A stretch of 64,000 bases of DNA from Verrucomicrobiia bacterium (GCA_036272195.1 DATAZE010000049.1:1-64000), one strand, 5' to 3'; counted from the stretch's first letter, positions 6,020 through 62,393 are shown. Numbers and translations are program-made. The notes: generated by a model not told the origin, from the letters alone.

Positions 6020-8080
6020 ATGCCTGCGAAGTCCGCCACATTCACGCCGCCGAACCGAACGGATCGGTGGCAAGCCATCTTGCCGGGATTGGCGATAGTC
6101 CTGCTGGTCGTGGTTGCCTACCTGCCCGCGTTGCACGGGCAGTTCATTTGGGATGACGATTTTCACGTCCTCAAAAACGCCTCTTTGCGTTCGCTAAGCG
6201 GGTTGTGGCGTATCTGGTTTGAACCGGGCGCGACGCAACAATATTACCCGATCACCTACTCGAGCTTTTGGATCGATTACCACTTATGGGGAATGAATCC
6301 CCCGCCCTATCACGCTGAAAATATTTTCCTTCATGCGCTCAATGCGCTGCTGGTCTGGCAACTCTTGCGGCGATTGAGCGTGCCCGGCGCGTGGCTCGGC
6401 GCGGCGCTGTTTGCGTTGCACCCGGTTTGCGTTGAATCGGTGGCGTGGGTCAGCGAACGGAAAAACACGCTTTCGGGATTCTTTTTTCTGATGTCCTTAT
6501 TCGCGGCCATTGAATTCTGGCTGCCTCGACGAAACGAAATCAAAAAGACCAACAGCCTCAAAGACACTGAATTCATTTTTGGGCCATGGAAGTTTTACTG
6601 GCTCACCCTATTCCTCTACCTATGCGCGCTGTGGTGCAAAACCGTCACCGCCGGCTTGCCAGGCGTCATCCTGGTGCTGGCCTGGTGGAAGCGCGGGCGA
6701 CTGCGATGGAAGGACGCACTTTTAGTCCTGCCGTTTTTGGCGCTCGGAATCGGAATCGGATTACTCACGGTTTCCATTGAGCACAAATCAATTGTCGACG
6801 CCGCAAATCTCGATGAATGGAAGCTGTCGTTACCGGCGAAGTTTTTCATCGCGGGACGGGCGTTCTGGTTTTATCTGGGAAAATTATGCTGGCCGTATCC
6901 GCTGATTTTCATTTACCCGCGCTGGAACATCGAGAGTCTGCGAGTAGTAAATTATCTACCACTGGCGGCTGCGGTTGCCGGATTTGCATTGTTGTGGTTC
7001 AAGCGCCGCGCGTGGGGTCGAGCGCCGTTGGCGGCGGCGGGTTATTTCGTCATTGTGCTCTTCCCGGCGTTGGGGTTCGTGAACATCTTTCCCTTCCGCT
7101 ATTCTTTTGTGGCAGATCATTTTCAATATCTCGCCACAATCGGACCACTGGCGTTGGCGGCAGCAGGCATCAGCGCTCTGCTGACGCGATTACCTGAAAA
7201 AAATGCCACGGTAAAACGGTCGCTGGCAGGTGCGCTTTTATTAGTAATGGCGGTGCTGACCTGGCGGCAAACGGGAATTTATCGCAATCTCGAAGTCCTC
7301 TGGCGCGATACGCTCGCGCGCAATCCGGGCGCATGGATGGCGCATGATAATCTAGGCCGCTACCTGACTGGGGCGCGGCGTTTTGACGAAGCGAAGGTTG
7401 AATATCACAAGGCCATCGAGATTCGGACGAACGATCACGTGGCCTATTATGATCTGGGATTGGAAGCCGCCATGTTGGGGAACCTCGACGAGGCGAAACA
7501 GGATTTCACAAAAACCCTCGAACTTTGCCCGACCTTCGCCACGGCGCATTACGAAATGGGCAATGTCTTCACGCGTGAGGGTAACCTGGATGAAGCAATT
7601 CACGAATACAAAGAGACGCTCAAGGCGATTCCCGGTCTCGTGTTGGCTCATTTTAATCTCGCCAACGCGCTGGCCCGGCAGGGGAAGCTGGAGGATGCTG
7701 TCGAAGAATATAAGCGGACGTTGGAAAAAGATCCGGACTACGCACCGGCGCACGCTACGCTGGGCCGAATCATGGCTTCGCGCGGAAATGTTGAGGGAGC
7801 GATCGAGCATTACCAGGCCGCGTTGGAGAGCGATCCGAATTCTTTGGAAGCGCTCGTGAATCTCGCCAACGCGCTGGTTTCCAAAGGGCAGTTGGACGAG
7901 GCGGTCACGCGCTATCACGAGGCGTTGCAATTGGATCCCAACAGCCCCGTAATCCACTTCAATTTATCCGTGGCGTTGGCGAAGCAAGGCAATGCCTCGG
8001 AGGCAGAACACGAGCGCACGGAAGCGCAACGACTCCAAGCCGAACGCTCGGCAGCTGGTGGGACGCGCCCGGCGAATTAG
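6020..8080 (+). CDS. TMTC/PMT_2-like multi-TM protein with C-terminal TPR repeats (putative O-mannosyltransferase-like)
   Basis: N-terminal YLPALHGQFIWDDDFHV...YYPITYSSFWIDYHLWG (DUF1736/PMT_2-like) + ~10 TM. C-terminal 34-aa TPR repeats (AHxNLGxxL.xxGxxxEA...). Confidence 0.65.
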   Translation: MPAKSATFTPPNRTDRWQAILPGLAIVLLVVVAYLPALHGQFIWDDDFHVLKNASLRSLSGLWRIWFEPGATQQYYPITYSSFWIDYHLWGMNPPPYHAENIFLHALNALLVWQLLRRLSVPGAWLGAALFALHPVCVESVAWVSERKNTLSGFFFLMSLFAAIEFWLPRRNEIKKTNSLKDTEFIFGPWKFYWLTLFLYLCALWCKTVTAGLPGVILVLAWWKRGRLRWKDALLVLPFLALGIGIGLLTVSIEHKSIVDAANLDEWKLSLPAKFFIAGRAFWFYLGKLCWPYPLIFIYPRWNIESLRVVNYLPLAAAVAGFALLWFKRRAWGRAPLAAAGYFVIVLFPALGFVNIFPFRYSFVADHFQYLATIGPLALAAAGISALLTRLPEKNATVKRSLAGALLLVMAVLTWRQTGIYRNLEVLWRDTLARNPGAWMAHDNLGRYLTGARRFDEAKVEYHKAIEIRTNDHVAYYDLGLEAAMLGNLDEAKQDFTKTLELCPTFATAHYEMGNVFTREGNLDEAIHEYKETLKAIPGLVLAHFNLANALARQGKLEDAVEEYKRTLEKDPDYAPAHATLGRIMASRGNVEGAIEHYQAALESDPNSLEALVNLANALVSKGQLDEAVTRYHEALQLDPNSPVIHFNLSVALAKQGNASEAEHERTEAQRLQAERSAAGGTRPAN

Positions 8081-8212
8081 CGCGCCGCGCCACGTTGATG
8101 ACTGGACACCATCGGCGCATTTCGACATTCTTGTCGCGTGACCAAAAGAGGCACAGTCTTCGTGACACAGTTCGCCGGCGACTGTCCATTCCTTTTGTAA
8201 CGCGACAATATT

Positions 8213-9625
8213 ATGGAAACCGCACCCACTCCCCCGCCATCCTCGGCTCCGCCGCCGATTATTGCGTCCGTTCCCAAAAAAACCAAAAAAAGTCGCAAGA
8301 CACTTTTCTTCATCATCGGCGGCCTGCTGCTTGTGGTGATAGTGGTGGTAGTGGTCATTTTGCGGGGAAGAAAACCGCCCATTATCGTTCAGACCGAAAA
8401 AGTGGCGCGGCGTAACATCACGGAAGTTGTCGTTGCGAACGGCAAAATCCAGCCGGTCACGGAAGTGATGATCAGTCCGGAAGTCGCCGGCGAAATCGTC
8501 GCGTTGCCGGTCAAGGAAGGCGACCACGTGAAGAAAGGCGACTTGTTGGTGCAAATCAAGCCGGACAATTATCAGGCCACTCGCGACTCCGCGGATGCCA
8601 ATTATCGTTCGGCGCTGGCCAACAAAAGCCTGGCACAGGCGCAATTGGACAAGGCCGAGGCGGAATACAAACGCAACCTCGAATTGTTCCAGCACAAGCT
8701 CGTTTCGGATTCGGTTTTTCTGGACATCAAAACCACCTACGAAGTGGCCAAACTGCAGCTTGAAACCGCATCGCACCAGGTCGACCAGGCCAAGTTCGGG
8801 CTCGACAACGCCAACGCCGATTTGAGCAAGACGACCATTCTTTCCCCGATTACCGGCACTGTCGTCCAGTTAAAATCACAACTCGGCGAGCGCGTGCTGG
8901 GCACGTCGTTCAACATGGGCACCGAAATCATGACGGTGGCCGACTTGAACGAAATGGAGGCGCAGGTGGACGTCGGCGAAATGGATGTGGTGCTGATGCA
9001 TCCCGATCAGAATGCGCGCCTGGAAGTGGATGCGTTCAAAGACCAGAAATTCAACGGCACCGTAACCGAAGTGGCGAATTCAGCGAAGGGTTTCAGCTCG
9101 AGCGCCACCGCGTTGGGCGGAGGCAGCAGCGCGACCGGAGACGCCACCAAGTTTGAGGTGCATATTCGAATCAAGGAAAAGGAACTGTTCCGCCCGGGCA
9201 TGTCAGTGACGGCGGAGATTGAAACGCGTTCGCGCACCAACGTAATGGTAGTGCCCATCGCGAGCGTGACGGCGCGGTTGCCCAAGCCCGCGAAGGATCT
9301 GGCAAAAACGAATTCACCAGCAGCGGGCACGAATGCCAGCGTGGCATCGTCGTCGACCACCACAAACGCGGTGAAGACGGACAAGAAAGCGAAAGAAGGA
9401 CCCAAGCAAATCGATGTCGTGTTTGTGGTGGAAGGCGATCATGTGAAGATGGTCCCCGTGAAAATCGGCATCAGCGACGACAATTACTGGGAGGTAACCG
9501 ATGGTTTGCAGGAGGGACAGGACGTGGTTTCGGGCGGTTATCACGCCATCAGTCACGATTTGGAGGACGGCAAAAAAATCACCAAGGGCCCGGCCCCGAT
9601 GGGCGGTGAGAAGAAAGAAATGTAG
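8213..9625 (+). CDS. macA: efflux RND/ABC-type periplasmic adaptor (membrane fusion protein, MacA-like)
   Basis: HlyD/MFP architecture: N-terminal TM, coiled-coil hairpin, beta-barrel motifs ([12 protein letters not shown]..., MVVPIASV). First gene of the macAB-ftsX operon. Confidence 0.8.
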
Positions 9626-9675
9626 AGCCCGCCAACGCCGAAAATAGCGGCGGCCACAAATCGCCGCTACCAAAC

Positions 9676-10362
9676 ATGAGCCTCATTCGACTTCACAATA
9701 TTTCGCGCCGCTACCAAATGGGCACGGAAACAGTCCACGCGTTGCGCGAAGTTTCGCTGGAAATCCAGCGCGGCGAATACGTCGCCATCATGGGGCCGTC
9801 CGGCTCCGGCAAATCTACTTTGATGAATCTGCTCGGTTGCCTTGATACACCCACGGCTGGGCAATACGAACTCAACGGCATCCAGGTCAGCGAAATGGAT
9901 GACAACCGGCTCGCCGAAGTGCGGAACAAGGAAATCGGGTTTGTTTTTCAAACCTTCAACCTCCTGCCGCGTTCCGATGCATTGCGCAATGTGGAATTGC
10001 CGCTGATTTATTCCGGCATGCCCAGCGAAGAACGCCGCCGCATCGCGCTCGAAGCGCTGGCAAGCGTTGGTTTGGGCGATCGCATTCATCATCGGCCCAA
10101 CGAACTTTCCGGCGGCCAACGGCAGCGGGTGGCCGTGGCGCGCGCGCTGGTGAATCGGCCTTCGATTCTGCTCGCGGATGAACCGACCGGAAACCTCGAT
10201 TCAAAAACGGGCGAAGAAATGATGGCCTTGTTCGAGCAGCTTTGGAGCAAGGGAAACACAATCATCCTGGTCACTCACGAAGAGGACATCGCCCGGCATG
10301 CCAAGCGGGTCATTCGCATACGCGATGGATTGATTGCCAGCGATGAGCGGATGGATGGATAA
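9676..10362 (+). CDS. macB: ABC transporter ATP-binding protein (MacB/LolD family)
   Basis: Walker [10 protein letters not shown], signature [15 protein letters not shown], Walker [14 protein letters not shown]-loop. Confidence 0.9.
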
Positions 10363-10866
10363 ATGGATTGGTGGATTTTTGGATGAACGGTTGGGCGACA
10401 GCTCTCAAAACTGTTTGTTCTTATGGAGTATACAAAACGAAGGAATTTGAATCGAGGATATATGAAACTCGAAGCGTGGCAACGCGGTATGGATTTATTT
10501 GCCATGGCATATCGCATGTCTGGGCATGTTTCTGACTTCAAACTCAAATCGCAATCCAGGGACTCCGCTCAGTCAGTTTCTGCAAACATTGGGGAAGGCT
10601 ATGGCCGTCGTTCACTGCCCGAGTACCTGCAATTTCTCTACATCGCCAAAGGTTCACTTGCCGAAACGCTCACTCGCGCGATAGGGTTCCGTAGCGTCGA
10701 GACCCTGTCCAGCGACGACTTCGAAGAATTTGATAAGCTCCATTACGAAGTGGAAAATAAGCTTTTACGCCTCATCGAATCACTTGAATCCAAGCGCGAG
10801 AGGAATGACTGGCGCGACACATTGCCATCCAGCAATCCAAAAATCCAGCCATCCATTTATCCTTCC
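10353..10866. mobile_element. four-helix-bundle gene cassette bounded by ~38-bp imperfect inverted repeats (10353-10390 / 10829-10866)
   Basis: GGATGGATAAATGGATTGGTGGATTTTTGGATGAACGG vs reverse complement of right end GGAAGGATAAATGGATGGCTGGATTTTTGGATTGCTGG (~34/38). Left IR overlaps macB stop, right IR abuts ftsX start. Confidence 0.5.
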
Positions 10867-10872
10867 CGATGA
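10462..10872 (+). CDS. four helix bundle protein (TIGR02436 / 23S-rRNA intervening-sequence protein family)
   Basis: MKLEAWQRGMDL...ANIGEGYGRRS..EYLQFLYIAKGSLAE... is a strong family signature. GAGGA SD 6 nt upstream of ATG 10462. Confidence 0.85.
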   Translation: MKLEAWQRGMDLFAMAYRMSGHVSDFKLKSQSRDSAQSVSANIGEGYGRRSLPEYLQFLYIAKGSLAETLTRAIGFRSVETLSSDDFEEFDKLHYEVENKLLRLIESLESKRERNDWRDTLPSSNPKIQPSIYPSR

Positions 10873-12095
10873 ACTTCCTGACCGAGTTACGCGAAGGCCT
10901 GGCGATTTCCTGGAGCGCCATTCGCGCGAACCGGTTGCGCTCCGTGCTTGCCACCCTTGGCATCGTCATTGGGATTGTGACCGTCACACTGATGGGCACC
11001 GCTATCCAGGCGCTGAATCGCTCCTTCGAGAAAAGCATTTCGTTCATCGGCGGCGACGTCCTGTATGTGGATCGAGGCTCGTGGTTCATGCAATCCTACC
11101 AGGAATGGCGGGACTCGCAAAAGCGCCCGGCGCTCTCACTTTCGGAAGCGGATGGTTTGGCGGAACAACTCACACTTTCGAGCGCCGTGACTTCCGTGGC
11201 CTCCACCGATGAGCCGGTGAAATACAAAAAGCATAGCTCAGGAGGGGTTTCGATTGTTGGCACCACCGAGAATTTCATGTTCACCATGGGCTTTTCGATT
11301 GCTGAAGGCCGTTTTCTCTCCGGCCCGGAATGCGATTTCGGCCGACCCGTCTGTGTCATCGGAGCCACCGTGGCCACCAATTTGTTTCCGCACGAACCAC
11401 CGGTCGGGAACAAGGTGCTCATCGGCAATTTGCCGTTTCAAGTTGTGGGCGTGCTCGATAAACAGGGCGGGTTCGTCGATAAGAATGTCGATAACCAGGT
11501 GATGATTCCCATGCCTCAATATATTTCGCATTTCGACGATAGCCCCGACCTGCAAATTCAGGTGAAAGTGAAAGACATGGCGCAGGTGGATGAAGCCAAG
11601 GATGAATTGCGGCTGATCATGCGCCGCCTGCGTCGACTCGCGCCAAATGACCCGGACAATTTCGCCATCAATCAGCAGGACCAGATCCTCACCATGTTCC
11701 ACGCGGTCGCCGGGACTATTGGAGCCATCGGGCTTTTTGTCACCGGACTTTCGCTGTTCGTGGGCGGCATCGGCATCATGAATATCATGTTTGTGTCCGT
11801 GGCCGAACGAACGCGTGAAATCGGCATTCGCAAAGCCATCGGCGCGAAACGGCGAACAATCCTCCTCCAATTTTTAATTGAAGCCGCGAGCATTTGCCTT
11901 ATGGGCGGATTCATCGCATTGGCCATCGCGTGGCCGATGACGTTGTTGATGCAACGGATGATGCCGGCGGAGTTGTCGTTGAATGTGGCTGGTGTCGCGC
12001 TCGGCGTGGCGCTGGTGACGGGTGTGCTGGCGGGATTTTTTCCCGCGTGGCGGGCGGCAAGGATGAACCCGGTGGATGCACTTAGGAACGAATGA
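10869..12095 (+). CDS. ABC transporter permease, FtsX/MacB-like (4 TM + periplasmic domain)
   Basis: N-term LRSVLATLGIVIGIVTV, large periplasmic domain, C-terminal FtsX motif ERTREIGIRKAIGAKRRTI. Confidence 0.85.
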   Translation: MNFLTELREGLAISWSAIRANRLRSVLATLGIVIGIVTVTLMGTAIQALNRSFEKSISFIGGDVLYVDRGSWFMQSYQEWRDSQKRPALSLSEADGLAEQLTLSSAVTSVASTDEPVKYKKHSSGGVSIVGTTENFMFTMGFSIAEGRFLSGPECDFGRPVCVIGATVATNLFPHEPPVGNKVLIGNLPFQVVGVLDKQGGFVDKNVDNQVMIPMPQYISHFDDSPDLQIQVKVKDMAQVDEAKDELRLIMRRLRRLAPNDPDNFAINQQDQILTMFHAVAGTIGAIGLFVTGLSLFVGGIGIMNIMFVSVAERTREIGIRKAIGAKRRTILLQFLIEAASICLMGGFIALAIAWPMTLLMQRMMPAELSLNVAGVALGVALVTGVLAGFFPAWRAARMNPVDALRNE

Positions 12096-12103
12096 ACAAT
12101 CAT

Positions 12104-12653
12104 GGTGGGGCGAGACTCCGTCGAGCCCTATCTAATTATGAATCCGAACGATTCAAATATTGAAGTCGGCAGAAAAAATCCATCAACGGGCGTCCACGTT
12201 CATTTTGGAGAATCAACGATAGTGTTGTTGACTGTGACCACTGAAAACAGGATGCCTTGGCTGGCGAATCCGCTTGCCGACCGGCTTCTGCGAGAAACCT
12301 GGCAAGACGCGAGAGCGTGGCTGGTTGGCGACTACCTGTTAATGCCCGATCACCTTCATGCCTTTTGCGCACCCCAAGACTTTTCATTTTCAATTGAGCA
12401 ATGGATGACTTTTTGGAAGCGCGATTTTCGGCGACGACATGGCCGGGAGGATTGGCGCTTTCAATCTCGTGGCTGGCATCATCGCCTTCGCCATGGCGAA
12501 GACCACTCCACCAAGTGGCTTTACATTCAGGAAAATCCGGTTCGTAAAGGACTTGCGAACAGAATCGAGGATTGGCTGTACAAGGGATCAATTCATTACA
12601 TCAGATGGTAACTCGCAACAAAAGATCAGGGCTCGACGGAGTCTCGCCCCACC
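12104..12653. mobile_element. RAYT unit: REP-associated tyrosine transposase gene flanked by perfect 26-bp inverted repeats
   Basis: 12104-12129 GGTGGGGCGAGACTCCGTCGAGCCCT; 12628-12653 is its exact reverse complement. Each arm is itself an imperfect hairpin. Inserted between the two ftsX genes. Confidence 0.7.
12138..12611 (+). CDS. REP-associated tyrosine transposase (RAYT, IS200/IS605-like Y1 HUH transposase)
   Basis: HUH motif PDHLHAF, C-terminal catalytic Tyr region WLYIQENPVRKGL. Collinear with E. coli YafM/TnpA_REP (VLPEHMHCIW; YIYINPVKHGWV). Alternative start ATG 12102 overlapping the left IR. Confidence 0.8.
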   Translation: MNPNDSNIEVGRKNPSTGVHVHFGESTIVLLTVTTENRMPWLANPLADRLLRETWQDARAWLVGDYLLMPDHLHAFCAPQDFSFSIEQWMTFWKRDFRRRHGREDWRFQSRGWHHRLRHGEDHSTKWLYIQENPVRKGLANRIEDWLYKGSIHYIRW

Positions 12654-12697
12654 GTAGGGGGGCACTCCTTCTCGCCGAGCTAAACGAAAGCTTTCGC

Positions 12698-13906
12698 ATG
12701 GGCATGGGCGCTTTGGCGGCGCACAAGTTGCGTTCGGCGCTCACGCTGCTGGGCGTGCTCATCGGCGTGTTTTCCATCATCGTGGTGATGACCGCCATGC
12801 GCGTCTTGCAGCACAATGTCGAGGAGAACCTCAGCCAGATGGGCGCCCAGACTTTCATGGTCCGCAAGGCTCCAATGATTTTTTTCGACAGCCCGGACGG
12901 ATTTGAAAAATTCCGGCGGCGGAAAAATATCACCATGGCCCAGGTAAAACGGCTCGACGATAAAACAACCTTGCCGGCGAGCATCGGAATGGAAACGTCG
13001 TTTTGGGCGGGTGAAATGCAGACCCGCTACGGAAAAAGCGCCCCCGATGTGCCCGTCTTCGGCGAAACCCCCGGCAGTTTTCCCGCGCATAACTGGATCG
13101 TGCAGGACGGGCGCGCCTTATTGGAAATGGATGTGGACGGCATACGCGATGTTTGCGTGCTGGGCAACAAGCTTGCCGAAACTCTTTTCCCGCACAGCCC
13201 GGCGCTCGGCGAATGGTTAAAGATCGACGGCATCAATTATTTGATCATCGGCGTTCTTGAATCCCGCGGCGGCACGCTCGGCGGCAACCAGGATAATTTT
13301 GTCGTGATGCCCATCACCACCGGCTTGAACCGTTACGGACGCTATGGACGCAGCTTGAATGTGCTTGTGGAGGCGCGCGATGCGGCGAGTTACAACGCCA
13401 CGGAGGAGGAAGTGCGCGGCGCGTTGCGGGTCATCCGCAAGGTGCCGCCGGGAGAGGAGGACGACTTCGAGCTTTTTTCCAACGATTCGATGATCTCGCA
13501 GTTCAACGATTTCACGCGCGCAGTCCGCATCGGCGTGGCACTGGTCAGTTCGATCGCGCTGCTCGCCGCCGGGATCGGCATCATGAACATCATGCTCGTC
13601 TCCGTCACGGAGCGAACGCGCGAAATCGGCATCCGCCGCGCCGTGGGTGCGAAGAAGCGCAACATCATGGCACAATTCATCATGGAAGCGATCGTGTTGT
13701 GCGAGGTGGGCGGCGTGATCGGCGTGGGGTTGGGTATACTCGGAGGAAATGTCCTGGCACTGGTCTTGAAATTGCCGCCGGTGATCCCGGTGGATTGGGT
13801 GGTGCTGGGCCTGTTGATTTGCTCGGTGGTGGGAGTTGTGTTCGGGACTTATCCGGCGTTTAAAGCGGCGAATCTGGATCCGATTGAGTCATTGCGATAC
13901 GAATGA
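12698..13906 (+). CDS. ABC transporter permease, FtsX/MacB-like (second permease)
   Basis: KLRSALTLLGVLIGVFSII..., ERTREIGIRRAVGAKKRNI. The ORF-track start 12572 lies inside the RAYT gene. First ATG after the right IR is 12698; the native start may have been displaced by the insertion. Confidence 0.75.
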   Translation: MGMGALAAHKLRSALTLLGVLIGVFSIIVVMTAMRVLQHNVEENLSQMGAQTFMVRKAPMIFFDSPDGFEKFRRRKNITMAQVKRLDDKTTLPASIGMETSFWAGEMQTRYGKSAPDVPVFGETPGSFPAHNWIVQDGRALLEMDVDGIRDVCVLGNKLAETLFPHSPALGEWLKIDGINYLIIGVLESRGGTLGGNQDNFVVMPITTGLNRYGRYGRSLNVLVEARDAASYNATEEEVRGALRVIRKVPPGEEDDFELFSNDSMISQFNDFTRAVRIGVALVSSIALLAAGIGIMNIMLVSVTERTREIGIRRAVGAKKRNIMAQFIMEAIVLCEVGGVIGVGLGILGGNVLALVLKLPPVIPVDWVVLGLLICSVVGVVFGTYPAFKAANLDPIESLRYE

Positions 13907-13922
13907 ACGTTTTCCTGCGAAC

Positions 13923-13952
13923 GCTGACGTCCCGCCGGCGGGACGTCAGCGC
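13923..13952. terminator. perfect 30-bp palindrome (13-bp stem) between convergent genes, bidirectional terminator-like
   Basis: GCTGACGTCCCGCCGGCGGGACGTCAGC directly after ftsX2 stop (13906) and before the end of the minus-strand DUF1573 gene. Confidence 0.45.
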
Positions 13953-13980
13953 TCCCAGGATTGAAAGCCGTTCTCGGACG

Positions 13981-17274: not shown

Positions 17275-17340
17275 CAGAGCGCGGACTTCAGTCCGCGTGT
17301 CTCCATACAATTAATAACTCGCGGACTGAAGTCCGCGCTC
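17275..17340. terminator. 20-bp perfect inverted repeat (arms themselves palindromic) between convergent genes
   Basis: AGAGCGCGGACTTCAGTCCGCG ...23 nt... CGCGGACTGAAGTCCGCGCTC. Lies between the phosphoesterase stop (17272) and the SNF2 helicase stop (17353). Confidence 0.4.
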
Positions 17341-22124: not shown

Positions 22125-23271
22125 ATGTTTGACACCATCACGGCGGAAATTTCGACGGCGGCGGAGAAACTCGCGCATCTGCGGAGGTTTCTTTGACGTC
22201 CCGGGCGCGCAAAAACGGATAACGGAACTGACTGCTTTGATGGCGGGTGAGACCTTCTGGAACAGTCGCGAACACGCCCAAAAGGTCATCGACGAATCCA
22301 ATTCGCTCCGCAATAAGATCGAGCCATTGCTCAAGGCGGAAAAGCAACTCGAAGATTTCCAGGTGATGGTCGAGTTGGGTGAAGCCGAGCCGCCAGAGGC
22401 CCAGGCTAAAATCCAAAAAGAACTCGAAGCCGACCTCGCCAAGTTTTTCAAACAACTTGAGGCGACGGAACTGCGGGTTTTTCTCAACGGCCCGCACGAC
22501 AAGAATAATTGCATCCTGAGCATCAACTCCGGCGCGGGTGGCACCGAGGCCTGCGATTGGGCGAATATGCTCCTGCGGATGTATCAACGCTGGGCGGAAT
22601 CGCGCGGCTGGGAGATTGAGGTCACCGACGCGTTGCCCGGTGAAGGCGCGGGCATCAAAAGCGCCACCATGCTGATCACGGGGGAGAATGCCTACGGCTT
22701 TTGCAAAGCGGAGCGTGGCGTTCATCGGCTCGTGCGCATCTCGCCGTTTGATTCCAACAAACGTCGCCATACCAGTTTCGCGAGCGTGGACACGATTGCG
22801 GAACTCGAGGAGGACACCACGGAAATCGTCATTCCGCCGAATGAATTTTCGGTGGACACCTTTCGTTCCGGCGGCAAAGGCGGCCAGAACGTGAACAAGG
22901 TGGAAACTGCAGTGCGTATTACGCACATTCCCACCGGCCTGGTCGTGGCTTCGCAAGCGCAACGTTCGCAGCATCAGAACCGCGCCACCGCGATGAAGCT
23001 CCTGCTGTCCCGCATTTTCGCGCAACGGCTCGATGCCGCCAAGGCGGACATGGAAAAATTTTATGGCGAAAAAGGCAGCGTCTCCTGGGGCAACCAGATT
23101 CGCAGCTACGTTTTTCAACCTTACCGAATGGTCAAAGACCTGCGCACCGGCGTTGAGACGAGCGACGTGCAAGGCGTAATGGATGGCAACCTTGATCCAT
23201 ACGTTAACGGCTGGCTACGCGCCGGCTGCCCGGCGAAGCGCATGCAGGGCGTGAAGGATGAAGAAGATTAA
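22125..23271 (+). CDS. prfB: peptide chain release factor 2, with programmed +1 ribosomal frameshift at 22191-22197 (CTT TGA C)
   Basis: Frame-0 ORF ATG 22125...LRRFL-TGA. SD-like GGAGG 3 nt upstream of CTTTGAC is the canonical RF2 autoregulatory site. The +1 frame continues DVPGAQKRITEL... through SPF, GGQ (SGGKGGQNVNK) and RF2 motifs to 23271. Confidence 0.9.
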
Positions 23272-23336
23272 CGCAAAGACGCAAAGACGCAAAGAAAAGA
23301 ACGGCTCTGCGACTTTGCTTCTTTGCGCCTTTGCGT
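23271..23336. repeat. (ACGCAAAG)x3 tandem octamer facing three inverted copies, ~24-bp stem hairpin between prfB and trpC
   Basis: ACGCAAAGACGCAAAGACGCAAAG-aaaagaacggctctgcga-CTTTGCTTCTTTGCGCCTTTGCGT, 22/24 pairing. Overlaps prfB stop, ends 9 nt before trpC ATG. Confidence 0.5.
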
Positions 23337-23344
23337 TGAATTCC

Positions 23345-24241
23345 ATGGCAAATATTTTAGATACCATCGTTGAAGAAAAGAAACGCGAGGTCGCGCGGCT
23401 ACCGGAGCGCGTGCTGGCCGCGGGCGATTTACGCGATGCCATGCTGGAACACGGCGAACGGCGCGATTTCATGGCTGCGCTAAGATCACGTAGCAGCCGA
23501 GGTAACGAGGCTCAAATCAAACCGGAGCCTCCTAACGTCGGCGGCTACAATTCAATTGCGCTGATTGCGGAAGTGAAGAAGGCCTCCCCATCGGCGGGCA
23601 TTATTTGCAAAGATTTTGATCCCGTTAAGATTGCCAGGGAATACGAAGCGGCAGGCGCGAGTTGTTTGTCAGTGCTAACGGACGAAAAGTTTTTCCAAGG
23701 CTCGCTGGATTACCTGCGGCAAATTCGCGCAGCCGTGAAGCTGCCGCTGTTGCGCAAGGATTTCATCATCGACGAGCGGCAGATTCTGGAAGCCATCGAG
23801 TGGGGCGCGGATGCGATTTTGTTGATCGTGGCGATTCTCGACGACGAGCGCTTGAAACGCTTCCATTCACTGGCGAAAGGCGCTGGCTTGTCTGTGCTGG
23901 TGGAAGTGCACGACGAAGCTGAATTGGAACGCGCGCTGGCGATTGGCGCCGATCTCATTGGCGTGAACAATCGCGATTTGAAAACTTTCAAAGTGGATTT
24001 AGGAACGACGGAACGGCTGGCGGCTAAACTTTATAGTGGCACGGGCATCTTGCCCGTGCGATTGCAGAAAGAAACGCACGGGCAAGATGCCCGTGCCACT
24101 ATGCTCGTCGCCGAAAGCGGCATTCACACGCGAGCGGACGTCGAGCGGTTGACCAAATGCGGCGCGGCGGCAATTCTGGTTGGCGAATCGTTAATGAAGG
24201 GCGGGGATATTCGGGCGAAAGTGAAGGAATTGATTGCCTGA
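23345..24241 (+). CDS. trpC: indole-3-glycerol phosphate synthase, carrying an in-frame 22-aa insertion encoded by a palindromic repeat
   Basis: IGPS motifs (ALIAEVKKASPSAG, SVLTDEKFFQGS, LPLLRKDFIIDERQILEA, VLVEVHDE, IGVNNRDL, VAESGI). Start at MANILDTIVEEKK (23345); the upstream part of the track ORF is the hairpin region. Confidence 0.85.
   Translation: MANILDTIVEEKKREVARLPERVLAAGDLRDAMLEHGERRDFMAALRSRSSRGNEAQIKPEPPNVGGYNSIALIAEVKKASPSAGIICKDFDPVKIAREYEAAGASCLSVLTDEKFFQGSLDYLRQIRAAVKLPLLRKDFIIDERQILEAIEWGADAILLIVAILDDERLKRFHSLAKGAGLSVLVEVHDEAELERALAIGADLIGVNNRDLKTFKVDLGTTERLAAKLYSGTGILPVRLQKETHGQDARATMLVAESGIHTRADVERLTKCGAAAILVGESLMKGGDIRAKVKELIA
24035..24100. repeat. REP-like doublet: two inverted copies of a 26-bp palindromic unit (AGTGGCACGGGCATCTTGCCCGTGCG) with 14-nt spacer, inside the trpC reading frame
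   Basis: Copy 1 24035-24060, copy 2 (inverted) 24075-24100. 66 bp = 22 codons starting on a codon boundary (SGTGILPVRLQKETHGQDARAT), no stop. Third copy at 36676-36701. Confidence 0.7.
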
Positions 24242-27837: not shown

Positions 27838-28175
27838 GCCTTGTAGCAGCCTAAGTCGGCCTGCCTTCCTGCAGGCCGTCGCGGGGGACCCAAACCCGGA
27901 TTCCGCAATTGCGGAACGGGGCGGGGCGAACGGCGATGGCGAACCATCGTCGAGGTCACTTTCAGGACCTAGCCCGTCAGCTAACCTCGTCGGCATCTGG
28001 AAGGGCGATCCTCCAGGACCCGCGTGTGCGGGCACCCGCGGTCTCCCCACTCAAAACGCGTTGCGTGTTGTAGCGGCGGTCTATGCCCGTCGCCAAGATA
28101 TGCAGCGGCGCTCCCTGAGCGCCGGACTGACCTTGTAGAACTGCGGCGGTCATAGACCGCTGCTACACGAGCTAC
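27838..28175. repeat. cluster of GTAG...CTAC REP-like palindromic elements (BIME-like) upstream of flotillin gene; alternatively a structured ncRNA
   Basis: GTAG-headed palindromes: 27842 GTAGCAGCC + hairpin GGCCTGC-cttcct-GCAGGCC; 28068 GTAGCGGCGGTCTATG pairs with 28152 CATAGACCGCTGCTAC; 28136-28167 GTAGAACTGCGGCGGTCATAGACCGCTGCTAC; inner hairpin GGCGCTC-cct-GAGCGCC. Confidence 0.35.
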
Positions 28176-30530: not shown

Positions 30531-30603
30531 GTAGCAGCCGACGTCAGGAGGCTCCAATCAGATTTTCCAAAAAAGGAATGAGCCTCCTGATGTCGGCTGC
30601 TAC
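30531..30603. terminator. 24-bp inverted repeat with 25-nt loop, GTAG...CTAC REP-like, between convergent genes
   Basis: GTAGCAGCCGACGTCAGGAGGCTC ... GAGCCTCCTGATGTCGGCTGCTAC (23/24). Right arm overlaps the stop of the minus-strand DUF2007 gene. Confidence 0.5.
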
Positions 30604-33225: not shown

Positions 33226-33316
33226 AAAAGCTTCAAATTCCAAGCCCCAATTCGTCACTATCTTCTTTGGTATTTGGAGTTTGGCGATTCTTTGGAGCTT
33301 GGGGCTTGGAATTTGG
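33226..33316. repeat. 21-bp inverted repeat (GCTTCAAATTCCAAGCCCCAA / TTGGGGCTTGGAATTTGGAGC) enclosing a TTGGAG repeat array, upstream of the rpmH promoter
   Basis: 20/21 complementarity. The 49-bp spacer carries TTGGAG/TTGGCG/TTTGGAG repeats. Confidence 0.45.
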
Positions 33317-33372
33317 AGCTTTAGGCCACACGGAGAAGTTTAAATTCAAATTAGGACATCCGTCGGCCATCC

Positions 33373-33991: not shown

Positions 33992-34008
33992 ACAAGGCAG
34001 AAGGCAGA

Positions 34009-34371
34009 ATGAAGAAACTGATCCCGGCGCGTGTGCGTCGGGCTTTTGCATTCTTCCTTCTTCCTTCTTCCTTCTTAATTCTCTTCGTCCGTCTCTATCG
34101 CATCACGCTCTCGCCGGCCAAAGCGTTTCTCTTCGGTCCGTCCGCGCAATGCCGCTTCGAGCCGAGCTGCTCACAATACGCCATCGAGGCCCTCAAAACC
34201 CACGGCGCCATAAGCGGCGGCTGGCTCGCGGCCAAACGCGTTTGCCGCTGCCATCCCTGGGGCGAATGCGGCGAAGACCCGGTGCCGGCAGTTAAGCCCA
34301 AAGTCCAAAATCTAAAGTCCAACGCTCCGCATCCCACGTTCCAGGTTTCGAACTTTGGATCGCGAATCTAA
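34009..34371 (+). CDS. yidD: membrane protein insertion efficiency factor YidD
   Basis: Embedded in track ORF 33742..34371. [65 protein letters not shown] = DUF37/YidD signature. Alternative start 33988. Confidence 0.75.
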
Positions 34372-41044: not shown

Positions 41045-41381
41045 TCTGTTTTCCACTGAATCCCATAATCCGGGCGCATATCAAAATTTGAATGGTATTT
41101 CAGCCACGGAGTGGCGGTAGATGGTAGCCCATGGCGCGAGCCGTGGGAACCGAACGTGGAAATTGTTAAGCCCCGGATGGGGCGAAAGAAAAATGCCGTG
41201 CCGCGTTCTTTCGCTGCTCCGCAGCTAGTTCCTCGATTTTTTGCGATATGCAATTTTTGATATGCGCCCCCGTAACCCCGCAGTTCGAATGGGCACGGCG
41301 CAGCGCAATTGGAACTTGGAATTTGGAACTTTATTTGACAGCCATGCTATAATAGCCGCAGAAGGAGGACAGAAAGGGCAA

Positions 41382-53064: not shown

Positions 53065-53754
53065 TCACCCAAGGCGCGCGAGAAATTTATAAAACGCATA
53101 TCGCCGCATGATCGACCTCACGTAAGCCCTCGTATTCGGAAACCCGATTTGACCGATGAATACTGCGCTGTTGGTCGCCGCCGCGCCGCCGTTCCATTTC
53201 AGTAAATGGCCGCGGCCGGCGTTGTAATCGGCCAACGCGAATGGCAGCGGGTCATCCGTACGCGCGTAACGCTTCATTAATTTGCCCAGGTAAAATGTCC
53301 CCGCCAGAACGTTGGTGCCGGGATCGAAACATTGTTCGTGCGAGAAATTTTGGACGTGCTCAGCCACGGCCCAATCAAGCGCCGCCGCCTCCTGGATTTG
53401 CATCAGGCCGATTTCACCGGCACGACCGCGCCGATCGGGATGAAACCGCGTCTCCCGCCAGATCACTGCCTTCACCAGGAGCGGATCGACATTGTAACGT
53501 TTCGCGGCGGCATTGATTTGTGGTTGGAATTTTCTGCCCTGGGTGGCAGCAAACCACAAATAAACGCCGCCGCTTATGAGTGCCGCCGAGCACAACGCAA
53601 CCAGCAGCAAAATTATCCGGCGCCATTTCACGGCGTCATTGTAGCGGTGCTCCGCGGGCGTCGCATTCCAAATTTCTGATGTGCTCCAATCATTCCGGGA
53701 GCGCTGACGTCTCGGCATCGCCTCACATTTGAGACCCTCGCGCTTGACAGTCAT
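53065..53754 (-). CDS. lytic transglycosylase domain protein (SLT family)
   Basis: N-terminal TM. SLT catalytic region VKAVIWRETRFHPDRRGRAGEIGLMQI...ALADYNAGRG. Start at internal Met to avoid overlap with priA. Confidence 0.75.
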   Translation of the reverse strand: MTVKREGLKCEAMPRRQRSRNDWSTSEIWNATPAEHRYNDAVKWRRIILLLVALCSAALISGGVYLWFAATQGRKFQPQINAAAKRYNVDPLLVKAVIWRETRFHPDRRGRAGEIGLMQIQEAAALDWAVAEHVQNFSHEQCFDPGTNVLAGTFYLGKLMKRYARTDDPLPFALADYNAGRGHLLKWNGGAAATNSAVFIGQIGFPNTRAYVRSIMRRYAFYKFLARLG

Positions 53755-53782
53755 TGCGTATGCCTCAACTCTCCATTCCAGA

Positions 53783-56110
53783 ATGATCGCGCGCGTCAGC
53801 CTCGAAATCGCCCTCCGCAAGGAGTTCGATTACATGATTCCGCCCGGCCTCACCGGCCAGGTGGATGTGGGCAGTCGCGTGCAGGTGCCCTTTGGCCCGC
53901 GCAAAGTCCTCGGCTGCGTGACCGCGCTCGCTGAGGAATCGGCGCATACAAAACTGAAGCCGATCATCAAAGTCATCGGCGCGCAAACGCTGGTGACGCC
54001 AAAAGTCCTCAAGCTCGCGCGGTGGATCGCAGATTATTATTGCTGCGCGTCGGAGATTGCGCTCAAAAGCGTCCTTCCCGAAGTGGTCCGGAAGGAACAA
54101 AGCGGATGGCGCGAGCGACTCTTCGTGCGCGCGCTTCCGGTGGCGGGCGAGTTGCCAAAACTGCCGAAACGTCAGCGCGAAATCTGGAACATCATCGAGG
54201 AACGCCGCGAGTTGCCTTTGCAGGAATTGCTTGAGCTTGCCGAGACCACGGCATCCACCATTCGGCGGCTGGAAGACCGCGGCCTCGTCGAAATCGCAAA
54301 TCAAATTTCCGAGCGGGATCCCTACGCGCGCGAACATATTTTGCCGTCGCAACCGCTACCGCTCAACGCCGCGCAGGCAGAGGCATTGGAAAAAATAAAA
54401 AGCGCCATGAATGCCGGCGCCATGCAAAATTCAGATGTGCAGCTATCAACCACAGCACATCCGTCTTCTAAGACATTTCTTTTGCACGGCGTCACCGGTT
54501 CGGGAAAAACGGAGGTCTATCTTCAAGCCATTGCCCACGCTCTTGAGCAAGGCAAAGGCGCGATTGTGCTTGTGCCCGAAATTTCCCTGACGCCTCAAAC
54601 AGTGGAGCGATTCAAAGCCCGCTTCAGTTCCGGCAACTTGCAGACACTCGTGGCGGTGCTGCATTCGCATCTTTCATCGGGCGAACGGCATGATGAATGG
54701 CACAAGATACGCCAGGGCCGCGCGCGCATTGTCATCGGCGCGCGATCGGCGATCTTCGCTCCTGTGGATCCGCTGGGACTGATTATCGTGGATGAGGAAC
54801 ACGAGCACACTTACAAGCAGGAGGAATCGCCGCGTTACCACGCGCGCGACGTGGCGATCATGCGCGGCCAAATGGAAGGCGCGCCGGTCGTGCTCGGTTC
54901 GGCAACGCCATCGCTGGAGACGTATTTCAATTGCCGCAAGGGAAAATACACGCTGCTGGAATTGCCTGAGCGCGTGGACGACCAAAAAATGCCGCAGGTG
55001 CGGGTCGTGGACATGCGGCAGGCCGCCCGCAAAGAAAAGGGCACACCCATTTTTTCGCCGCAACTCAAGGAGGCCATCACGCAGCGGCTGGAACGCGGCG
55101 AGCAAACTATTTTGTTTTTGAACCGGCGAGGCTACTCGACTTCACTGCAATGCCCCAAGTGCGGTCACGTTTGCGGCTGTCCGAATTGCAGTATTTCGCT
55201 CACCTATCATCGCCTGGAACAAAAGCTTTCGTGCCACATCTGCGGTCATAGCGAAAAGGTCCCCTCGGTTTGCCCCAATGAAAGCTGTAAAAATCCTGCG
55301 ATCCGCTTTGCCGGCACAGGCACGCAGAAGGTGGAAGAAACACTGGCGAAATTATTTCCCAATGCCCGCACCAAACGCATGGATGCCGACACCATGAAGC
55401 GCAAGGATGATTACCGTACGATTCTCGGAGATTTTCGCGTGGGTAAAATCGACATCCTCGTCGGCACGCAAATGATCGCAAAAGGCCTGCATTTCCCGAA
55501 TGTCACGCTGGTGGGAATTATTTTTGCGGACCTTGCGTTGCATCAACCGGACTTCCGCGCCGGCGAGCGTACTTTTCAATTGCTCACGCAGGTCGCCGGC
55601 CGGGCCGGGCGCGGTGATATTGAGGGCCAAGTTGTGGTGCAGGCATTCACGCCATTTCATCCAGCCATTCAATTCGCGCGGCGCCATGATTTCGGCGGCT
55701 TCTACGAGCAGGAACTGGAATTTCGCGAACAACTGAAATATCCACCGTTCAGCCGGGTGGCGTTACTGACCTTGAAAGGCCGGAACGAAGAGAAGGTGAA
55801 ATTTTCCGCTGAACATTTGAAGAAGGTGCTTGAGTCAGTTGTCCAAAAATCCAAAGCCCAAAGTCCAATGTCCAAAGAAACCGCGGCGGGCGCGACCTCG
55901 GACCATGGGCCTTGGACTTCGGACTTGGTAATCGCCGGCCCCGCTCCTGCGCCTTTACTGCGGGCGGAGACGTTTTACCGTTATCAAATTATGCTGCGCA
56001 CACATCGCATGAGCGCGCTCAGCCGCGAGCTCGCAAAAATTATTCAGGCACTGGTGTTGCCGGAAGACATAATGCTGGCGGTGGATATTGATCCAGTGGA
56101 CCTCGGGTAA
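53783..56110 (+). CDS. priA: primosomal protein N' (replication restart helicase PriA)
   Basis: 3'-BD N-terminus, Walker A LLHGVTGSGKTEVYL, DEEH, Cys-rich zinc-binding region (CPKCGHVCGCPNCSISLTYH...CHICGH), helicase C motifs. Confidence 0.9.
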   Translation: MIARVSLEIALRKEFDYMIPPGLTGQVDVGSRVQVPFGPRKVLGCVTALAEESAHTKLKPIIKVIGAQTLVTPKVLKLARWIADYYCCASEIALKSVLPEVVRKEQSGWRERLFVRALPVAGELPKLPKRQREIWNIIEERRELPLQELLELAETTASTIRRLEDRGLVEIANQISERDPYAREHILPSQPLPLNAAQAEALEKIKSAMNAGAMQNSDVQLSTTAHPSSKTFLLHGVTGSGKTEVYLQAIAHALEQGKGAIVLVPEISLTPQTVERFKARFSSGNLQTLVAVLHSHLSSGERHDEWHKIRQGRARIVIGARSAIFAPVDPLGLIIVDEEHEHTYKQEESPRYHARDVAIMRGQMEGAPVVLGSATPSLETYFNCRKGKYTLLELPERVDDQKMPQVRVVDMRQAARKEKGTPIFSPQLKEAITQRLERGEQTILFLNRRGYSTSLQCPKCGHVCGCPNCSISLTYHRLEQKLSCHICGHSEKVPSVCPNESCKNPAIRFAGTGTQKVEETLAKLFPNARTKRMDADTMKRKDDYRTILGDFRVGKIDILVGTQMIAKGLHFPNVTLVGIIFADLALHQPDFRAGERTFQLLTQVAGRAGRGDIEGQVVVQAFTPFHPAIQFARRHDFGGFYEQELEFREQLKYPPFSRVALLTLKGRNEEKVKFSAEHLKKVLESVVQKSKAQSPMSKETAAGATSDHGPWTSDLVIAGPAPAPLLRAETFYRYQIMLRTHRMSALSRELAKIIQALVLPEDIMLAVDIDPVDLG

Positions 56111-62280: not shown

Positions 62281-62284
62281 GGTT

Positions 62285-62393
62285 GGTCAAATCAGTTAAA
62301 TAAGTTAAATGGGTTAAATTAGTGAATGAGCAGCGAATCGCAGAGTCCCCACCCATTGAACCGATTTAACTTATTTAATTCGTTTAACTGACC
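62285..62393. repeat. AT-rich ~40-bp imperfect inverted repeat pair between emrB and lutA (core TTAAATAAGTTAAAT)
   Basis: GGTCAAATCAGTTAAATAAGTTAAATGGGTTAAATTAGTG ... CCCATTGAACCGATTTAACTTATTTAATTCGTTTAACTGACC. Strongly AT-rich in a 60% GC context. Confidence 0.5.

Follow-up and report, generated by a model that had tools for sequence, protein, structure and literature searches.

Results

The operon and its two cassettes

This study concerns a four-gene exporter operon and the two small gene cassettes lodged in it, which lie on a 64-kb stretch of DNA (the window) from a metagenome-assembled genome of a soil Verrucomicrobium (Verrucomicrobiia bacterium, GCA_036272195.1, DATAZE010000049.1:1-64000). 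Positions 8213-13906 hold six genes, all on the + strand, i.e. the four exporter genes and two cassette genes, one between the ATPase and permease 1 (cassette 1, with a four-helix-bundle or 4HB gene) and one between the two permeases (cassette 2, with a gene for a RAYT, a transposase of the Y1 or HUH type, between two REP sequences). The features are as follows.

8213..9625, + strand: membrane-fusion (HlyD/MacA-like) adaptor, operon gene 1 (TIGR01730 RND_mfp, E=1e-50; HlyD_D23, HlyD_3)
9676..10362, + strand: stand-alone ABC ATPase with a MacB/LolD-type nucleotide-binding domain (PF00005, E=1e-34; matches MacB model residues 3-225)
10353..10384, + strand: cassette 1 left arm, five GGAT units at 8-nt period (GGATGGATAAATGGATTGGTGGATTTTTGGAT); arrays of 3-6 units in six lineages
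10423..10872, + strand: four-helix-bundle gene, S23p/23S_rRNA_IVP, here "4HB-1" (PF05635, E=2.5e-21; TIGR02436, E=1.4e-21; PDB 2GSC, E=5e-13)
10835..10866, + strand: cassette 1 right arm, five ATCC units, encoding the 4HB tail ..NPKIQPSIYPS
10869..12095, + strand: permease 1, MacB_PCD + FtsX (PF12704, E=5e-41; PF02687, E=1e-20)
12092..12163, + strand: probable remnant of the ancestral permease 2 start: ATG in a 4-nt overlap (ATGA) with the permease 1 stop, opening a 23-codon frame through the left REP
12104..12129, + strand: left REP arm (GGTGGGGCGAGACTCCGTCGAGCCCT), identical in L082, L144 and L186, with one change in L088
12138..12611, + strand: RAYT-like Y1 (HUH) transposase, 157 aa (4ER8 TnpArep, E=1.2e-5; NF047646, 66.6 bits)
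12605..13906, + strand: permease 2, MacB_PCD + FtsX (PF12704, PF02687), start predicted
12628..12653, + strand: right REP arm, reverse-complementary to the left arm at every position and within the extended permease 2 frame (..SGLDGVSPHR..)

A first-pass annotation of this DNA had placed inverted-repeat pairs around the 4HB gene (10353-10866) and the RAYT gene (12104-12653) with both cassettes in the orientation of the operon, and the pairs and orientation were recovered exactly so. The pair in cassette 1 (10353-10384/10835-10866) has 32-nt arms, 91% complementary and 450 nt apart, and that in cassette 2 (12104-12129/12628-12653) has 26-nt arms, 100% complementary and 498 nt apart. The arm sequences have no other copies in the 64 kb, such pairs appeared in 0 of 100 shuffles, and both close the minimum-energy RNA fold (z -2.3 and -5.9).

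Empty sites and age of the insertions

A scan with one genome per species yielded 80 Verrucomicrobiota loci with an orthologous operon, at permease 1 identities of 48-79% (loci and operons compared with the window carry labels from L001 to L224). The ATPase/permease 1 spacer was 40 nt or less in 58 of the 77 measurable operons, with an ATGA stop/start overlap in 21 of these, and the permease 1/permease 2 joint was essentially empty, often again with an ATGA overlap, in 57/75; the corresponding window spacers are 506 and 572 nt. Because the same joints are tight in most related operons, both cassettes are insertions, and the earlier suggestion that they occupy normally coupled joints is borne out. 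In L001, with 79% permease 1 identity, the first joint is pristine, and L012 and L211, which share 84-86% nucleotide identity, differ by clean presence or absence at both joints.

Although inserted, neither cassette looks new. There are more than 1500 homologues of 4HB-1, the best 120 listed being at least 74% identical, and all five of the five contexts examined read ATPase, 4HB, permease 1 of the same operon (L209, L210, L211-216, L217-223 and L224, permease 1 identity 59-93%), the 4HB stop and the ATG of permease 1 overlapping in the majority. The RAYT gene lies between both permeases in L082, L088, L144, L186 and L217 (55-88%); L217, with a permease 1 only 59% identical, has both cassettes just as in the window. 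Nei-Gojobori estimates gave ratios of nonsynonymous to synonymous change (dN/dS) of 0.07-0.11 for 4HB-1 (against L210, L209 and L211) and 0.06-0.09 for the RAYT, values near those of the transporter genes, and the proportion of synonymous differences (pS) was saturated for both, equal to or above that of the flanks. Low dN/dS and saturated synonymous divergence together show that both genes encode selected proteins that diverged with the operon. RAYT identity declines with host identity (77, 72, 70, 69 and 68%), and the gene, in orthologous position in six lineages, shows the vertically inherited pattern of a housekeeping gene. Judged by these comparisons, both cassettes are long-resident, conserved passengers and not fresh invaders. 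The first-pass annotation had seen a snapshot of invasion, a view that does not survive the finding of the same genes at the same joints in close and distant relatives under purifying selection with saturated synonymous divergence. It had also held that relatives with the same genes at the same positions between non-repeat flanks would speak against insertion; the positions are indeed shared, but the flanks are repeats.

Cassette 1

The 4HB-1 gene starts at 10423, as its N-terminus MEYTKRRNLNRGY is kept across all six lineages through synonymous changes only, and encodes 149 aa within a cassette of 514 nt. An exact database look-up of the window protein found no match because the NCBI entry (P0121) starts at M14. 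The protein aligns to Xanthomonas XCC0516 (2GSC, E=5e-13), the S23p structure, for which a homopentameric assembly of four-helix bundles is reported (PMC4990558). The cassette is fitted closely to both neighbors: the final 10 nt and stop codon of the ATPase gene fall within the left arm, so that the ATPase ends ..SDERMDG* as opposed to ..SDERLVRAA* in the empty-site L001, where the stop overlaps the permease 1 ATG, while at the other end the right arm stops 2 nt short of the permease 1 ATG and the 4HB-1 stop overlaps that codon as ATGA.

The arms form the closing stem in both minimum-energy and centroid RNA folds. The window duplex is -44.8 kcal/mol (z -6.4), and arms in the six lineages all pair strongly (-23 to -45 kcal/mol, z -4.8 to -6.6). 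A test for compensatory change gave -34.2 kcal/mol for cognate pairs of arms and -35.4 for non-cognate pairs, the pairing arising from the shared unit; since cognate arms pair no better, the conserved feature is the unit array and not lineage-specific complementarity. The left arrays of L211 and L217 are identical at 39/39 positions. No Rfam family matched over the cassette arms at relaxed threshold, no rRNA is present in the 64-kb window, and PADLOC found no defence-system match for 4HB-1, the RAYT or 4HB-2, a second 4HB protein described below. By its gene and architecture cassette 1 appears to be an element of the rRNA intervening sequence (IVS) type sited in mRNA, namely an S23p gene between inverted arrays of an 8-nt GGAT unit.

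Cassette 2

The open reading frame (ORF) 12102-12611 has a single family match, NCBIfam REP_Tyr_transpos NF047646, at 66.6 bits versus a cutoff of 80, and no match in Pfam including Y1_Tnp, for which reasons it is considered a divergent family member. Among solved structures its best relative is E. coli TnpArep 4ER8 (phmmer E=1.2e-5), to which it aligns with HLH on HMH and Y-I-q-e-N-P-V on Y-I-y-i-N-P-V, so that the HUH motif and catalytic Tyr are in register. The start is most likely ATG 12138: most of the RAYT homologues among the 120 matches listed are of 157 aa, and in L082 an ATG upstream of the 12138-equivalent runs into a stop.

The RAYT is flanked by inverted REPs likewise in L082, L088, L144 and L186. 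The REP arms of the window and L082 are identical at 52/52 nt although synonymous sites differ by ~50-60%, and the REP is nearly unchanged down to 55% permease identity. A metagenome scan with a 25-mer at up to 4 mismatches, counted over contigs among the matches listed, found at least 201 copies in at least 120 contigs, with at least 62 head-to-head doublets, most often 47-50 nt from start to start; a RAYT was nearby in only four of the 120 contigs listed, two of the four being this operon. The doublet folds as a REPIN at -39.6 kcal/mol (z -11). A GTAG tag was not conserved at either REP end across the lineages compared, and stop-free stretches are uninformative on whether REPs avoid coding sequence, 94% of sequence being stop-free at this G+C. 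Taken together, cassette 2 appears to be a RAYT nested between inverted REPs (a REPtron, or RAYT-in-REPIN) with the REP dispersed elsewhere mostly as REPIN doublets, upon which the RAYT would act.

Single REPs of this type were also seen in L044 (4814-4835), in the adaptor/ATPase spacer, and in L021 (23-44), at the contig start ~230 nt upstream of the ATPase, neither operon having a RAYT at its permease joint. In L083-L087 (P0091) a 63%-identical RAYT has a phosphoribosyltransferase gene on one side and dnaK on the other, and carries perfect inverted arms of its own, 32-35 nt long, that have the GGTGGGGCGAG start of the window REP. Elsewhere in the window, inverted doublets at 17277-17340, 24033-24102, 30531-30603 and 33227-33322 are REPIN-like with sequences unrelated to this REP, and in at least the first two of these each arm is itself palindromic.

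Displacement of the native permease 2 start

In the empty-site operons L003, L008, L012 and L044 permease 2 starts at exactly the ATGA on the permease 1 stop, and the N-terminus in empty-site relatives is M-K-F-H-K-P-T-L-L-L-A-E. The closest relative, L210, retains M-T-F-H-K-P-T-LLLAE downstream of a cassette of its own. In the window the M-T-F-H-K-P-T codons are gone and REP sequence stands in their place. Ahead of the conserved LLLAELNESFR the frame offers a single start, ATG 12605, in overlap with the RAYT stop (ATGgTAA); the ORF as a whole spans 12572-13906 and homology to other permeases begins at 12668. From the 12605-equivalent ATG onward, the frame stays open and in phase across the right REP in each of the five RAYT operons with the junction read, the codons between REP and LLLAE vary mostly synonymously (e.g. 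AGG to CGA), and gene callers choose the equivalent ATG in L081, L082 and L088. Permease 2 would accordingly be translated from ATG 12605 through the right REP as ..SGLDGVSPHR... Loss of the native start codons with maintenance of a new start frame indicates that cassette 2 displaced the native 5′ end of permease 2, a proposal of the first-pass annotation that stands. In practice, automated start calls for permease 2, the RAYT and the 4HB gene go wrong at joints of this kind.

Turnover and other occupants

Several relatives hold reduced or different occupants. L082 (88%) has no 4HB gene; the right arm of cassette 1 is instead fused in frame to its ATPase, as the ending ..DTLPSTNPKIHQSTYPS, and this joint is a deletion scar of cassette 1. 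L043 has kept the two GGAT arrays and the opening bases of the 4HB ORF with nothing between, and the retained bases identify it as an internal-deletion derivative. L211 has ORF-less GGAT hairpins at its operon's other two joints, and the left arm of one is ~85% identical to that of the L211 4HB cassette. In other lineages the same joints contain GxxExxY/PDDEXK_3 genes (L014, L044, L058), a Y1 transposase (L015), HicA/HicB (L022), AbiEii (L066), or other 4HB proteins (L040, L049, L209, L210, L004, and a remnant in L001). Downstream of the HicB/HicA pair at the permease 1/permease 2 joint of L022 (2123-2671), the final ~27 nt of permease 1 appear a second time, ahead of the native permease 2 ATGA start, which indicates a duplicated junction. 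Cassettes numbered 8 in joints and 3 in flanks of the 80 loci, a comparison biased because the query panel was itself drawn from joint cassettes, and enrichment at joints is for that reason not claimed. A different spacer repeat family occurs in the same operon in L016 (1531-1887), L020 (4749-4981 and 6917-7187) and L062 (7227-7625), translating as ..PLTLTLSLGERE.. / ..SPRERAGVRGKG...

Hairpins built of unit arrays

Inverted arms made of unit arrays were found in all 11 further 4HB or GxxExxY cassettes that were examined in relatives. The units are ACGTGAAA for 4HB-2, GACAGAAT-like for GxxExxY, GAATAGTG in L040, and AGGTTTC in L017 and GCGGAAT in L067, the last two cassettes lying outside the operon. 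Hairpins of the same build and without an ORF, in many unit types, make up at least 14/24 of the mid-size (60-300 nt) spacers of the orthologous operon, as read at joints of L004, L007, L009, L028, L033, L034, L043, L052, L053, L055 and L061; those made of GGAT units are found in relatives almost entirely at joints of this operon.

ORF-less hairpins are also present in the window at 23270-23337, 62281-62393, 55841-55930 and about 34000-34076, with arms of tandem 7-9-nt units (ACGCAAAG, AAATnAGTT, GTCCAAA, GGCAGAA/TTCTTCC). Two of them lie exactly between co-oriented genes, and the one at 55841-55930 is in frame within a 793-aa ORF (53729..56110). The unit types ACGCAAAG and GTCCAAAG recur at operon joints in L015, L052 and L061.

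The exporter and its surroundings

The operon combines a membrane-fusion adaptor, an ABC ATPase, and permeases with a MacB periplasmic core and FtsX C-terminal domain, the features of a MacB-type (type VII) tripartite ABC exporter. From its gene content it is best described as encoding such an exporter, its ATPase split and its two permeases distinct, at 31% identity to each other. With regard to the initial naming of macA-macB-ftsX-ftsX, an ATPase in the form of fused MacB was rejected, the protein being a separate polypeptide closest to MacB and LolD models. In L070 and L072 (Ignavibacteriota) a third MacB_PCD/FtsX permease paralogue (7216-8463) lies between both permeases.

A scan for promoters and terminators gave counts equal to shuffles, leaving internal signals of either kind no commoner than chance. 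One further feature lies directly 3′ of permease 2, before a convergent DUF1573 gene.

13913..13960, no strand assigned: palindrome with 25-nt arms, 92%

It is likely the operon's end hairpin, resembling a two-way terminator without a T-run. Elsewhere in the window a c-di-AMP riboswitch (27838-28010, + strand, 51.2 bits) and an Acido-Lenti-1 RNA (41102-41147, - strand, 39 bits) scored above the Rfam gathering score.

Discussion

The patterns detected are probably best explained by two originally selfish elements that took up residence at the only sites permissive for them in a tight operon, where they are expressed by read-through transcription, keep the stop/start overlap, and are carried vertically with occasional loss, hairpin decay and replacement. 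Under this explanation, adjacent genes of the ancestral operon would have been translationally coupled through 4-nt ATGA overlaps, and each of two couplings would now hold a hairpin-bounded single-gene element of selfish origin. Both cassettes would presumably be transcribed by read-through from the operon promoter. The 4HB stop on the permease 1 ATG and the RAYT stop on the new permease 2 ATG would preserve both overlaps, and it is probably because the overlap with the downstream permease was kept that the cassettes have been tolerated. The stems might in addition be substrates of RNase III, by analogy with rRNA IVSs and Correia elements (PMC2649163), and, since the left arm of cassette 1 contains the ATPase stop and its right arm is directly followed by the permease 1 ATG, could mediate long-range coupling.

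Several observations weigh against this explanation. Occupants are patchy on the permease 1 tree, where the window (RAYT) is sister to L210 (4HB-2), followed by L209 (4HB-2), L082 (RAYT) and L001 (4HB-2 remnant). L210 and L209 hold 4HB-2, only 31% identical to 4HB-1, at the joint where the window has its RAYT, and sliding-window identity around the window RAYT joint gave no sign of a recombination tract in the flanks. Patchy occupants, and a swap of RAYT and 4HB-2 without such a tract, are more than pure vertical descent with loss can account for. For cassette 2, the REP occurs within the 64-kb window only as the two RAYT-flanking copies, and a single REP forms a 4+3 bp hairpin with a tandem G.A mismatch of -4.7 kcal/mol as DNA, no better than shuffles. 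For cassette 1, GGAT arrays occur almost solely at this operon's joints in 1.6 Mb (the exception is upstream in L014), which would also fit a host function.

That last finding leads to an alternative explanation, i.e. that the hairpins, whether or not they enclose a gene, serve the host as functional RNA elements between cistrons, acting as RNase III sites that set subunit ratios or as long-range stems that unmask the downstream start, with the 4HB protein an RNA-binding regulator of the GGAU array. Beyond the near confinement of the arrays to this operon, it would account for strong arm pairing in all six lineages, the ATPase stop within the left arm and permease 1 ATG adjoining the right one, the frequency of such hairpins among mid-size spacers of relatives, selection on the 4HB gene, and the homopentameric state of the S23p homologue (PMC4990558) together with arms of 3-6 units each. 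We nevertheless consider it unlikely: most related operons are without any hairpin, cognate arms have no pairing advantage over non-cognate arms, unit types vary by lineage and occur at unrelated joints and inside a window gene, and the same architecture surrounds 4HB genes outside the operon.

A more doubtful explanation is site-specific re-insertion or homing, or recombinational spread through the conserved permease flanks, as for free-standing homing-endonuclease genes between conserved phage genes. This could produce the alternation of RAYT, 4HB-2, HicAB and another 4HB at one joint, and constant cassette sizes (571-574 nt, 625-629 nt) in distant clades. It is also consistent with the 87% identity between 4HB-2 of L004 and L049, whose permease 1 is 55% identical; with 4HB-1 pS between L211 and L217 of 0.31 as compared with 0.44-0.61 in the flanks; with the L022 insertion and its duplicated permease 1 end; and with the nuclease fold of GxxExxY proteins. 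On the other hand pS is otherwise saturated, the window RAYT has no recombination tract beside it, the 4HB protein is without a catalytic domain, and no target duplication was seen.

Recent double invasion, with two mobile elements that arrived lately and are merely tolerated, was the view of the first-pass annotation; in its favor are the inverted repeats bounding the cassettes, empty sites in many relatives, and the clean difference between L012 and L211. It is now very improbable and already largely refuted, as both genes stand at matching joints down to 55-59% permease identity with saturated pS and dN/dS of ~0.1, and the cassettes have no second copies in the window. Finally, an assembly chimera or mis-called ORFs, conceivable in any metagenome-assembled genome, can be dismissed almost entirely because the same arrangement was independently assembled from several samples and sources and the ORFs have family matches and are under purifying selection.

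The explanation by long-resident elements of selfish origin may have a broader form. It is possible, if rather unlikely, that the 4HB cassette is one member of an undescribed class of elements, consisting of inverted arrays of 7-9-nt units that carry a 4HB gene, a GxxExxY gene or nothing, of which the classical rRNA IVSs would be only a subset. If so, the encoded oligomer would recognize its own unit array, giving an autonomous/non-autonomous relation like that of RAYT and REPIN, and the closing stem would keep interrupted neighbors joined, whether as rRNA halves in the ribosome or, in operons, through stop/start coupling or RNase III processing. No description of mRNA-joint cassettes or such hairpins outside rRNA, including in Verrucomicrobia, was found in the searchable literature, the coverage of which is incomplete and makes this weak evidence.

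The finding of these elements at gene joints has two implications. First, the IVS-type cassette at an mRNA joint, with its family of unit-array hairpins, is the more interesting lead; this poorly known kind of element had so far been reported only from inside rRNA genes. The nature and mobility of IVSs and S23p proteins have been open since about 1990 (PMC4990558), and study of IVSs in rRNA is hampered by a host gene that is both multi-copy and essential. Here an IVS-like architecture is found at simple gene joints with presence/absence pairs, a deletion scar, ORF-less derivatives and several combinations of protein and unit type, and for that reason direct tests are possible. Secondly, at this locus a RAYT is wired into the translation of an operon and one REP is apparently part of a membrane protein; this wiring and the near-frozen REP bear on the debate over the role of RAYTs in their hosts (PMC5581495).

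Comparison with known systems

The exporter resembles E. coli MacAB and LolCDE in its membrane-fusion adaptor and MacB-type permease (periplasmic core domain, FtsX fold). It differs from E. coli MacB in its unfused ATPase and its pair of permease paralogues. These two features recall LolCDE, from which the presence of an adaptor gene sets it apart.

For cassette 2 the closest systems are REPIN-RAYT and REPtron elements (PMC5581495, PMC3116915, PMC3733652, bioRxiv 10.1101/2021.07.10.451892), which share a TnpArep-related HUH/Tyr transposase, inverted REP flanks and head-to-head doublets, and for which expression through upstream read-through has been proposed (same sources). As in those systems, the window RAYT is seemingly single-copy, in orthologous position and co-diverging with its host (PMC5581495; PMC3733652). 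Unlike them, the host is a member of the Verrucomicrobiota, the protein falls under the NCBIfam cutoff with no Pfam match and no conserved GTAG, the RAYT sits inside an operon joint with one REP arm probably read within the downstream permease frame, and the REP is almost invariant over very deep divergence.

Correia elements of Neisseria (PMC2649163) and other co-transcribed MITEs (miniature inverted-repeat transposable elements) likewise are inverted-repeat elements in intergenic or intercistronic DNA. Correia elements have many near-identical copies, target duplications and no gene, whereas here the arms are varied unit arrays and the larger forms bear genes; as compared with a MITE, cassette 1 has no second copy in the window and no flanking direct repeat. 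The Avd protein of diversity-generating retroelements belongs to the same pentameric four-helix-bundle family (PMC10053308 lists PF05635), but both neighbors of 4HB-1 are transporter genes, with no adjacent reverse transcriptase or template/variable repeat.

The strongest likeness of cassette 1 is to the ORF-bearing 23S rRNA IVSs of Coxiella burnetii and Leptospira (PMC4990558), with a size of ~430-510 nt, a terminal stem of ~28-32 bp and an S23p ORF in the loop. The 23S IVS of C. burnetii is 428-444 nt with a 28-bp terminal stem cut by RNase III and an S23p ORF, and has tandem heptamers (GACAGAT) just before the ORF (PMC4990558); short tandem units of 7-8 nt beside the ORF start, sporadic distribution and ORF decay are further points in common. 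The differences are that cassette 1 lies between ATPase and permease genes and not in helix 25/45 of 23S rRNA, and that its ORF is intact, under purifying selection, and overlaps the start of the next gene.

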